This document shows, one piece after another, positions 35,566-40,656 of a DNA stretch of 64,000 nucleotides (position 1 is the first letter of the stretch; the number at the start of each line of letters is the position of its first letter). The notes beneath the pieces are model-generated. The model searched no databases. It was not told the DNA's origin and worked only from the letters and a program-made list of their open reading frames with translations. The DNA lies in assembly GCA_965221125.1 (NCBI GenBank), contig CBDCRW010000003.1, positions 320,001 to 384,000 on the forward strand. Direction: 5' to 3'. The stretch comes from Alphaproteobacteria bacterium (GTDB lineage Bacteria; Pseudomonadota; Alphaproteobacteria; UBA828). The translations under genes and the position numbers were made by a program.

Positions 35566-36771
35566 CTACACCCGCTCCAGGATCATGGCGATGCCCTGGC
35601 CGACGCCGATGCACATGGTGCAGAGCGCGTAGCGGCCGCCCCGGCGTTCCAGTTCGCGGACGGCGGTCAGCACCAGCCGCGCCCCGCTCATGCCGAGCGG
35701 ATGGCCGAAGGCGATGGCGCCGCCGTTGGGGTTCACGTGACCGGCGTCGTCCGGCAGCCCGAGCGCGCGGGTGACCGCCAGCACCTGCGCGGCGAAGGCC
35801 TCGTTCAGCTCGATCACGTCCATGCGGTCGAGATCGAGGCCGGCCTTCGCCAGCACCTTGCGGGACGCCGGCGCAGGCCCCACGCCCATGATGCGGGGCG
35901 CGACGCCCGCGCTCGCCATGGCGACGACGCGCGCGCGCGGCGTGAGGCCGTGGCGCCTGGCCGCATCCTCCGACGCCACCAGCAGCGCGCAGGCGCCGTC
36001 GTTGACGCCCGATGCGTTGCCGGCGGTCACCGTGCCGCCGTCCCGGAACGGCGTCGGCAGCTTGGCGAGCCCTTCCAACGTCGTCTGCGGCCTTGGGTGC
36101 TCGTCGTCGGCGACGACGACCGCATCGCCCTTGCGCTGCGGGATCGTAACCGGCGTGATCTCGCTCGCGAGCCGGCCGTCCTCGATGGCGGCCGCGGCGC
36201 GGCGCTGGCTGCGGTAGGCGTAGGCGTCCTGTTCCGGGCGCCCGACCTGGTATTCCTCGGCGACGTTCTCCGCCGTCTCCGGCATCGAATCGACGCCGTG
36301 CGCGGCCTTCATCAGCCTGTTGACGAAGCGCCAGCCGAGGGTGGTGTCGTGGACCGTGGCCTGGCGCGAGAACGCCGTCTCGGCCTTGGCCATGACGAAG
36401 GGCGCGCGGGTCATGCTCTCGACCCCGCCGGCAATCGCGAGCGCCCCCTCGCCCGCCTTGATCGCCCGCGCGGCGCTGCCCACGGCCTCCATGCCGGAGC
36501 CGCAGAGCCGGTTGACGGTGACGCCCGGCACGGTCTCCGGCAGGCCTGCGAGCAGCGACGCCATGCGGGCCACGTTGCGGTTGTCCTCGCCCGCCTGGTT
36601 GGCGCAGCCGAACACCACGTCGTCCACGGCCGCCCAGTCCACGCCCGCGTTGCGCGCCATCAGCGCCGCGATCGGCACGGCGCCGAGATCGTCGGGGCGG
36701 ACGGCGGAGAGCGCGCCGCCGAAACGGCCGATGGGGGTCCTCTGTCCATCGCAGATGAAGGCCTCGGTCAT
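35566..36771 (-). CDS. pcaF: 3-oxoadipyl-CoA thiolase (PcaF/PaaJ)
   Basis: [23 protein letters not shown] (Cys), [20 protein letters not shown]. Confidence 0.94.
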
Positions 36772-36919
36772 GGCTTGCGCTTATCCTTCTCTTGAGCGTC
36801 CGCGACGAAGCTGAAGGACGCGGGATCGAACACCAGACGCCGCTGCACCGGGAAGAACCGGAGATCGAAGCGCTCGGCAATGAGCCCCCAGATGCCCTGC
36901 GGCGCGCGCAGCATCATCA
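36466..36919. repeat. Direct repeat copy 1 (454 bp): livM 3' end plus pcaF 5' end
   Basis: Identical to 40206-40656 except for an extra tcc at 36745-36747. Confidence 0.97.
36768..36919 (-). pseudogene. Duplicated 3' fragment of the livM permease
   Basis: [49 protein letters not shown] is identical to the C-terminus of 40505-41575. Confidence 0.9.
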
Positions 36920-36920
36920 T

Positions 36921-37154
36921 CTCACGAGCTACAAGGCGGTCACGATCCCGGTTCAGATCGCCAAGATGATCGACCTCTACAACGTGCTCTGGGGGCCGCT
37001 CTCGGCGGCGGTGGTGATCCAGCTCGTGCCGGTGCCGATCGTGGTGTTCCTGATCCAGCGGCACACGATCCGCGGCCTCGCCCTCGGCGCGGTGACGCAG
37101 GCGGGCCGGGACGACGCCTCAGGCGCCCCCAAGGAGCAAGCACTTACGGGGTGA
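36921..37154 (+). pseudogene. 3' fragment of a carbohydrate ABC permease (MalG-like)
   Basis: LTSYKAVTIPVQIAKMIDLYNVLWGPLSAAVVIQLVPVPIVVFLIQRHTIRGLALGAV matches the MalG-type C-terminal consensus; there is no 5' part. Confidence 0.75.
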
Positions 37155-40083: not shown

Positions 40084-40202
40084 GGGATGCTCGCACCCCC
40101 GACGGTCGCACGGTTGGCAACTCAGCCGGATCGATGCGGCTGAGCGCCGGCCGTTCGTCGACCGTACGCATCGTATCAGTGTATCAACTCGTGGTTGCTC
40201 TG

Positions 40203-40508
40203 TCACCGCGCGGCGCTGCCCACGGCCTCCATGCCGGAGCCGCAGAGCCGGTTGACGGTGACGCCCGGCACGGTCTCCGGCAGGCCTGCGAGCAGCGACG
40301 CCATGCGGGCCACGTTGCGGTTGTCCTCGCCCGCCTGGTTGGCGCAGCCGAACACCACGTCGTCCACGGCCGCCCAGTCCACGCCCGCGTTGCGCGCCAT
40401 CAGCGCCGCGATCGGCACGGCGCCGAGATCGTCGGGGCGGACGGCGGAGAGCGCGCCGCCGAAACGGCCGATGGGGGTCCTCTGATCGCAGATGAAGGCC
40501 TCGGTCAT
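40203..40508 (-). pseudogene. Truncated duplicate of the pcaF 5' end (101 aa)
   Basis: Identical to the pcaF N-terminus minus one Gly codon; TGA immediately at the insertion junction. Confidence 0.92.
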
Positions 40509-40656
40509 GGCTTGCGCTTATCCTTCTCTTGAGCGTCCGCGACGAAGCTGAAGGACGCGGGATCGAACACCAGACGCCGCTGCACCGGGAAGAACCGGAG
40601 ATCGAAGCGCTCGGCAATGAGCCCCCAGATGCCCTGCGGCGCGCGCAGCATCATCA
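40206..40656. repeat. Direct repeat copy 2 (451 bp)
   Basis: Matches 36466-36919 with a single 3-bp deletion at 40484/40485. Confidence 0.97.

Follow-up and report, generated by a model that had tools for sequence, protein, structure and literature searches.

Layout of the livM-pcaF locus

We analysed a window of 64,000 nucleotides (G000:C3:320001-384000) from the metagenome-derived assembly of an uncultured alphaproteobacterial sponge symbiont (GCA_965221125.1, here G000; 4.58 Mb in 7 contigs, 92% complete, 5.8% estimated contamination). In this window a 3286-bp segment, hereafter the cargo (36920-40205; coordinates are those of the window unless a contig is named), lies between two nearly identical copies of a stretch of host coding sequence. 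The duplicated stretch spans the boundary between livM, which encodes a branched-chain amino-acid ABC permease, and pcaF, which encodes a 3-oxoadipyl-CoA thiolase. Both genes are intact around the cargo, which carries an ankyrin-repeat gene that we call gene X together with the relic of a sugar-ABC permease gene. The features of the locus, in descending order along the window, are as follows.

42441-41572, minus strand: livH, taken from the list of open reading frames (ORFs)
40505-41575, minus strand: intact livM-like branched-chain amino-acid ABC permease gene (Pfam BPD_transp_2, E 5e-31)
40206-40656: upstream repeat copy, made up of the livM 3' end and the initial 300 nt of pcaF, in which one GGA codon is missing
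40203-40508, minus strand: pcaF stub, an ORF of 101 aa with one Gly codon (GGA) missing
40178-40206, minus strand: sigma-70-like promoter site (-35 GTGACA, 17-nt spacer, TG-extended -10 TACACT)
37144-40083, minus strand: gene X, a 979-aa ORF from the ATG at 40083, with recognisable Pfam domains
37113-37143: interval holding J2, the joint between the gene X stop and permease-type spacer, from local alignments to sugar-type congeners
36920-37112, plus strand: permease relic 'b', the 186-nt 3' end of a sugar-ABC permease gene with a mutated stop and a few spacer bases, recognised by identity to congeners
36466-36919: downstream repeat copy, comprising the livM 3' stub and the 5' end of the intact pcaF
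36768-36919, minus strand: livM 3' stub of 152 nt, from ORF and sequence reading
35566-36771, minus strand: intact pcaF, 3-oxoadipyl-CoA thiolase, 401 aa (Pfam Thiolase_N and Thiolase_C)
34687-35553, plus strand: geneY, acetoacetate-decarboxylase family, convergent to pcaF (Pfam ADC, E 9e-30)

On the minus strand the order is therefore livH, livM, pcaF stub, cargo, livM 3' stub and intact pcaF, and within the cargo it is the promoter-like site, gene X, and the permease spacer with its relic (~193 bp), the coding sense of the relic being on the plus strand. Using sequence self-comparison we found 36466-36744 to be 100% identical to 40206-40484, and likewise 36748-36919 to 40485-40656, with the sole difference being 3 bp (36745-36747) that are extra in the lower-coordinate copy, giving lengths of 451 bp for the upstream copy (40206-40656) and 454 bp for the downstream copy (36466-36919). 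The upstream copy contains the final 152 nt of livM (40656-40505), with the livM stop at 40505; the start at 41575 was taken by eye from the ORF translation, and the match of the protein to the NCBIfam LivM subfamily model falls under its cut-off. The intact pcaF product scores over the cut-offs of both PRK09050 (718.7 bits, cut-off 605) and TIGR02430 (700.2 bits, cut-off 597). An initial annotation of this DNA, made from its letters alone, had described a repeat pair with a single 3-bp difference, a deletion placed in the non-functional pcaF copy, and intact livM and pcaF around a 3286-bp cargo in operon orientation. All of this is confirmed here, and the lengths of the stretch in congeners show the deletion to be derived. 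One correction is that the cargo does not form one foreign block, as 36920 to ~37112 is the relic of a permease gene that is native to the genus.

The two truncated genes differ in what they retain. The pcaF stub ends in a TGA stop that comes from the first bases of the cargo, and is non-functional. In the livM 3' stub the native sequence upstream of pcaF appears to be preserved, with the ATGA stop/start overlap still in place, and a chimeric 98-aa ORF (37064-36768, minus strand), in which the antisense of the permease relic is fused in frame to the last 50 livM codons, ends in this same overlap with pcaF. This ORF might preserve translational coupling to pcaF.

Gene X encodes ankyrin repeats, PG_binding_1, SH3_3 and a C-terminal FGE-sulfatase fold (Pfam; FGE-sulfatase E 2e-42), with a hydrophobic N-terminal segment that, judged by eye, is a possible signal peptide or membrane anchor. 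In the database the protein has 914 aa, and its start would accordingly be at 39888. The score stays below the cut-off for every NCBIfam model (PvdO comes highest, with 191.9 against 500 bits), and for this reason we refer to the C-terminus as an FGE-fold domain and do not call it a formylglycine-generating enzyme (FGE). The cysteine pair that we take to be the FGE catalytic motif was not seen by eye in the C-terminal segment. Approximately 30 database proteins share the architecture of gene X at 36–54% identity, with none closer, and the nearest homologues lie at 44–54%. A donor carrying gene X was not found in a set of 5.8 billion proteins, where apart from the window's own protein matches were at most 54%, nor in species-representative genomes (best match 52%) or metagenome contigs (38–49%). 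Within the genus the closest relative is in G016, with 47% protein and 67–68% DNA identity. The GC content at third codon positions (GC3) of gene X is 0.78 vs 0.89–0.98 in seven neighbouring genes, and a literature search joining sponge symbionts, ankyrin and formylglycine found nothing.

All matching bases of the -35 box upstream of gene X lie within the cargo, at its very edge, and one sigma-70-like site was found in 5.6 kb against 0.1 expected from shuffled sequence, this being a consensus match only. Gene X probably has its own promoter. No terminator-like site was found between the liv operon, gene X and pcaF, so read-through from the liv operon into X and pcaF appears possible. The X segment is a near-minimal unit that runs from the -35 box to at most ~30 nt beyond the stop codon, and with gene X, its 120-bp leader and the relic the cargo is filled, leaving no space for a recombinase gene.

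Empty sites and two alleles of the locus

In all six of the pcaF-type (P-type) congeners fetched (G020, G007, G004, G014, G003 and G019), livM and pcaF are contiguous and the repeat stretch is single-copy, in keeping with the target duplication proposed in the initial annotation. In these six genomes the alignment on one side of the cargo overlaps that on the other side by 453–454 bp, which indicates that the 3 bp are present there and that their loss in the stub is derived. These six P-type congeners show a clean empty site. In one of them, G019, a further ~1.4 kb lies between geneY and pcaF.

The relic reveals a second allele of the same interval. Cargo positions 1 to ~184 match nine of 40 relatives at 91–96% identity, and for the other 3.1 kb of the cargo none of the 40 gives a match above 68%. 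In eight of the nine matching relatives the counterpart of the relic lies 23 to ~200 bp past the livM stop and is convergent to livM, the ninth being represented by a 1.8-kb contig. In such sugar-type (S-type) genomes a 4.5–6.9-kb sugar-transport region fills the interval from livM to geneY and pcaF is absent, with geneY forming the conserved right border in both types. The genus thus has two livM-geneY alleles, one (P) with pcaF and one (S) with a sugar-ABC operon that ends in a permease gene convergent to livM. In G000 the stop of the permease remnant is mutated from TAG to CAG, and it reads as an orphaned, decaying fragment; no further part of the S-type permease was found in the G000 assembly, which otherwise offers at best a paralogue at 61%.

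A recA tree of 20 rows (G010 gave no match and G020 is represented by partial sequence only) placed the eight S-type genomes together with G018 in one clade (support 100/98), and G000 with the P-type genomes G007 and G020 (98/97), the P-type genomes as a whole being paraphyletic. To either side of the locus, too, G020 is the genome closest to G000. Because G000 belongs to the P lineage in this tree and holds no other trace of the S permease, the relic is an import from the S clade at the orthologous position of a P-type genome. A random foreign fragment is very unlikely to land by chance only a few hundred bases from its orthologous neighbour, which suggests that flanking homology guided the DNA to the locus. 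The initial annotation had not noted this relic of the locus's alternative allele, which suggests recombination between the alleles of two species and not a free-standing cassette.

Read data were examined as Logan contigs, which in runs X20 and X22 contain 92–98% of the sampled words. In both runs contigs span 36890-40235 with 0 differences, as one 3346-bp contig in X20 and two overlapping contigs in X22, and this span reaches exactly 30 nt beyond the cargo into either repeat, as a k=31 graph yields at a repeat border. Depth over the cargo was 22.5 in X20 vs 15–23 in the flanks, and 9.8–10.6 in X22 vs 6.8–12.9. These contigs rule out a joint made by the assembler but are not an independent confirmation, because both runs are probably the source sample. 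The idea that the cargo is a switchable cassette, with a change in coverage over it, finds no support, as its depth is flank-like in both runs, rare excision being beyond the reach of contigs. Likewise, no empty-site or excision joint was among the joints listed from the read contigs, which cannot reveal rare forms. In principle, RecA could delete or amplify the cargo by way of the 451-bp repeats.

Run X1, from another study, contains two pieces of gene X at a depth of ~4, one of 519 nt and one of 837 nt, with 3 differences each (~99.5% identical), and also a livM-linked contig in which the 3 bp are intact. In this independent sponge sample an S-type congener at a depth of ~17 stands beside a G000-like strain at ~4–6 (36919-37103 and 40535-41224), and the P and S allele types appear to co-occur in at least this sample. 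Elsewhere in the window, at 45334-45344 between the genes for a periplasmic binding protein and a class-I lysyl-tRNA synthetase, G000 has ~10 bp where 10 of the 11 congener loci fetched carry 1.7–3.8 kb of extra DNA (the eleventh alignment, G007, ends before this point); G000 may have undergone a deletion here, or else the place is a second variable spot.

Joints, age signals and mobile elements

J1 (40206/40205) joins pcaF codon 101 to the gene X leader. At J3 (36920/36919), where 1-nt microhomology was scored by eye, sequence from within the permease gene meets sequence from within livM, and J2 can be placed only to the interval 37113-37143. Both J1 and J3 read as illegitimate joints. S-type spacer homology extends beyond the former permease stop and probably continues to ~15 nt from the gene X stop, so gene X would occupy the place that the livM end holds in S-type genomes.

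The relic and the repeats differ in their apparent age. Six G000-specific changes fall in the 186 coding nt of the relic, five of them non-synonymous (four amino-acid changes and the stop loss), and a seventh lies in the spacer; all seven are changes to G or C, and four lie within 16 nt near J2. Over the same stretch the nine S-type genomes are identical in protein bar one residue in one genome, and the pattern in G000 points to relaxed constraint. The 451-bp repeats, which include two non-functional stubs, carry 0 substitutions vs approximately a dozen that we estimate at the rate of the relic. Gene conversion with the functional copies could have kept the repeats identical while the relic decayed, or the changes in the relic may stem from error-prone synthesis during the event, since four of them cluster within so short a distance of J2. 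The duplication may also be younger than the relic, which would fit a re-integrating cassette.

Pfam searches of the cargo and of 16 neighbouring ORFs (20.5–50.8 kb) returned neither a transposase nor an integrase, with no mobile-element genes within ~15 kb on either side, and repeat comparison gave no convincing terminal inverted repeats of the cargo, which upholds the initial annotation on all three counts. As regards a transposon, the only domains in the cargo are ANK, PG_binding, SH3 and FGE, and the duplication measures 451 bp; as regards an integrase island, there is no recombinase domain in the cargo or the 16 ORFs. The 4.58-Mb assembly holds no second copy of the cargo, the best matches being paralogues at 71–76% and one 48-nt stretch at 90%, and a large tandem duplication followed by deletion was rejected on this ground.

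A genome self-BLAST returned 35 local repeat pairs of at least 80 nt and no more than 40 kb apart. In this self-comparison no other near-identical repeats of unique host sequence were found to bracket a cargo, and the suggestion that repeat-bracketed cargo recurs in the genome was not borne out, as this was the only such pair. One look-alike (C5:357096-359918) proved to be an IS3-family element around an FGE-fold gene, and a second (C7:20203-22434) a fragment of a probable integrase gene, judged by its N-terminal sequence only; a multicopy transposon explains another local pair that was examined. The FGE-fold gene on C5 encodes a 316-aa, secreted-looking protein with a C-terminus resembling that of gene X (GC3 0.73), and has an intact IS3-family transposase gene on one side and, on the other, 484 bp of a second, 92.8% identical copy, which links this second FGE-fold gene of G000 to ordinary IS elements.

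The multicopy transposon has one copy at G000:C3:310448-315099, ~5 kb before the window start. This 4.6-kb element has at least 17 genome copies at 99.8–100% identity, carries genes for a transposase (rve/Mu-transpos_C), an ATPase (AAA_22) and an AAA_25 protein, and looks like a recently expanded Tn7/Tn552-like transposon; no copy lies at the livM-pcaF locus. Longer repeats of ~9–10 kb at 97–100% identity occur in at least five places, some at contig ends: C4:1-10816 equals C7:46581-57396, C7:1-9424 recurs inverted at C7:39819-49242, and related copies are on C2, C4 and C5. These repeats probably explain why assembly halted at 7 contigs.

Origin and significance of the insertion

We consider it probable that the locus arose through insertion-duplication without a recombinase, by staggered illegitimate joining during recombination between alternative alleles of one locus. 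DNA from a species of the S clade, in which gene X would stand where the livM end normally abuts the permease spacer, would have entered a P-lineage cell, where homology in the flanks would draw it to the orthologous locus and two non-homologous joints, J1 inside pcaF and J3 inside livM, would fix it. As J3 maps 451 bp upstream of J1 in the recipient, the 451-bp stretch came to lie on both sides of the cargo and both livM and pcaF stayed whole. The stagger could arise if the joints formed on two sister chromosomes, or if a re-invading replication end captured the foreign piece and rejoined 451 bp back; equally, a fragment that already had the livM-pcaF stretch of a conspecific hybrid allele could have circularised and crossed in.

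Several observations weigh against this account. No donor with gene X beside the permease was found, and the donor arrangement is one that we infer. The reads were used at contig level, and most of this evidence stems from runs that are probably of the source sample. With six changes in the relic and none in the repeats, a single event fits only with gene conversion or error-prone synthesis at the joint. At 300-bp windows no donor-type livM or geneY tract was detected in the flanks, where comparators that are 5–15% divergent would miss a short or conspecific one. Furthermore, Ku was not found in this 92%-complete genome (which is no proof of absence), and classical end joining would accordingly be unavailable for blunt joints.

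Rather unlikely, in our estimation, is a Campbell-type origin, in which a circle that joins the livM-pcaF stretch to X and the relic entered a naive pcaF-type chromosome by RecA recombination within the 451 bp. Such a circle would have formed either when a linear piece of a conspecific hybrid allele joined its own ends or when the unit was excised in another cell. The topology of the product is exactly that of a single crossover, RecA is present in G000, and if J3 were the circularisation joint this would explain why the duplicated stretch ends there. The relic also looks older than the repeats (6 changes vs 0), as expected from an old cassette recently re-integrated between near-identical conspecifics, and X1, with its livM-linked contig containing the 3 bp plus gene X, is compatible with a mixed population. 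However, the scheme needs a prior hybrid of P- and S-specific sequence, so that two illegitimate joints remain to be accounted for, and gene conversion accounts equally well for the age contrast; nor was a Ku for circularisation or a second integration in the genome found, and cargo and flanks are equal in depth. That the unit of 451-bp stretch, X and relic circulates as a homology-borne cassette, a RecA circle re-entering naive pcaF-type chromosomes of conspecifics, we regard as improbable; if it did, the relic would be old, the repeats would be renewed with each integration, and the mixed signals in X1 would be filled and empty sites. We give a similarly low probability to two successive homology-facilitated illegitimate recombinations, each anchored in geneY, the first replacing most of pcaF with S-type DNA (X, spacer, permease, sugar operon and geneY) to create J1, and the second replacing the permease body and sugar operon with conspecific P-type DNA (livM end, pcaF and geneY) to create J3 and restore pcaF. 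Each step is of a documented kind, with one homologous and one illegitimate end (PMC3240628), and this course of events explains the S piece at a P locus, the end of the pcaF stub at J1 and the loss of the sugar operon bar the relic. Yet 451 bp of perfect homology on the left should favour clean replacement that removes X over an illegitimate joint, no S-like patch was seen in geneY, and two rare events would be required at one site. The single event, the Campbell type and the two successive replacements all require J1 and J3 to be illegitimate and end in an identical product; the sequence by itself does not tell them apart.

An assembly artefact, that is, a chimera of strain variants threaded through the shared 451-bp stretch, is very improbable. 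The assembly is metagenome-derived with its 5.8% estimated contamination, and the sample holds congeners (compare the S-type contig at depth 17 in X1), but assemblers do not make up joints between non-homologous sequences such as J1 and J3, and the contigs of X20 (one) and X22 (two) extend over the cargo and 30 nt into either repeat at flank-like depth. In addition, the assembly resolves at least 17 copies of a 4.6-kb repeat, which suggests reads far longer than 451 bp. Hardly more credible is the remnant of an ordinary integrative element or transposon from which the recombinase gene and ends have been deleted. The genome is indeed rich in mobile DNA, including the transposon of at least 17 copies and IS3-family elements; against this, transposase target footprints are typically 2–14 bp and flanking repeats of 451 bp of host coding sequence are no such footprint, the cargo is fully explained by one gene, its 120-bp leader and a relic from the host genus, there are no inverted ends, and no cargo sequence recurs in the genome above 76%. 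The initial annotation had offered a Campbell circle or a duplication-insertion during repair: the insertion, the lack of a recombinase and the intactness of both genes stand, and the illegitimate joints leave both alternatives live, whereas recurrence and switching are unsupported.

Compared with known systems, the locus resembles the Campbell insertion-duplication of suicide-vector integrants in that the cargo lies between near-identical direct repeats exactly as long as the homologous stretch, which is single-copy in the empty site of six of six P-type congeners, and in that the product is in principle reversible or amplifiable by RecA. It differs in that no replicon, vector or circle was observed (a circle would have both joints in common with the integrated form), the would-be circle would mix the sequence of two alleles, and the duplicated stretch spans a gene boundary so that nothing is disrupted. 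In microhomology-mediated break-induced replication, template switching gives tandem duplications with filler DNA. The short duplication with templated foreign inserts seen here is similar, as are the filler of apparently several pieces (X, then spacer and relic) and the clustering of substitutions near one joint; on the other side, sequence alone does not demonstrate replication-based synthesis, and to our knowledge no template switching with 3.3 kb of interspecies DNA has been documented in bacteria.

Homology-facilitated illegitimate recombination is reported from naturally transformable bacteria and from E. coli conjugation (PMC3240628). The likeness is that DNA of a related genome (the relic is 91–96% identical to the S clade) has been fixed at an orthologous locus with flanking homology, through non-homologous joints with little or no microhomology (1 nt at J3, by eye). 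The classical product of this process, however, deletes the recipient DNA between anchor and joint, whereas here the recipient stretch is duplicated and no donor-derived anchor was detected. Transformation-triggered merodiploidy (Johnston et al. 2013, PMC3784515) proceeds by alternative pairing and interchromatid integration, and there too a fragment pairing at two positions of sister chromosomes gives a tandem duplication, but there repeated IS copies are used and 100–900 kb are duplicated, as opposed to 451 bp with non-homologous joints and foreign filler at the junction. Integrase islands with a replacement 3' end for their target likewise leave the target intact, the insert being flanked by a copy of the target's end, but here there is no integrase and no att-like core, and the 451 bp are plain coding sequence spanning two genes. 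The locus thus differs from Campbell, homology-facilitated and merodiploid products in combining a short, boundary-spanning duplication with interspecies filler and no anchor detected.

This is a single case of a known kind of event, with no new mobile element or transfer system. Its interest lies in an uncultured sponge symbiont having added a eukaryote-like ankyrin gene to a core operon without mobile-element machinery and with its neighbours undamaged. The 193-bp relic is a rare internal witness of the source, namely this locus's other allele as carried by a different species of the genus, and it ties the gene gain to ordinary inter-species recombination at a polymorphic site, making the locus useful for modelling gene gain by illegitimate or homology-facilitated recombination in natural populations.

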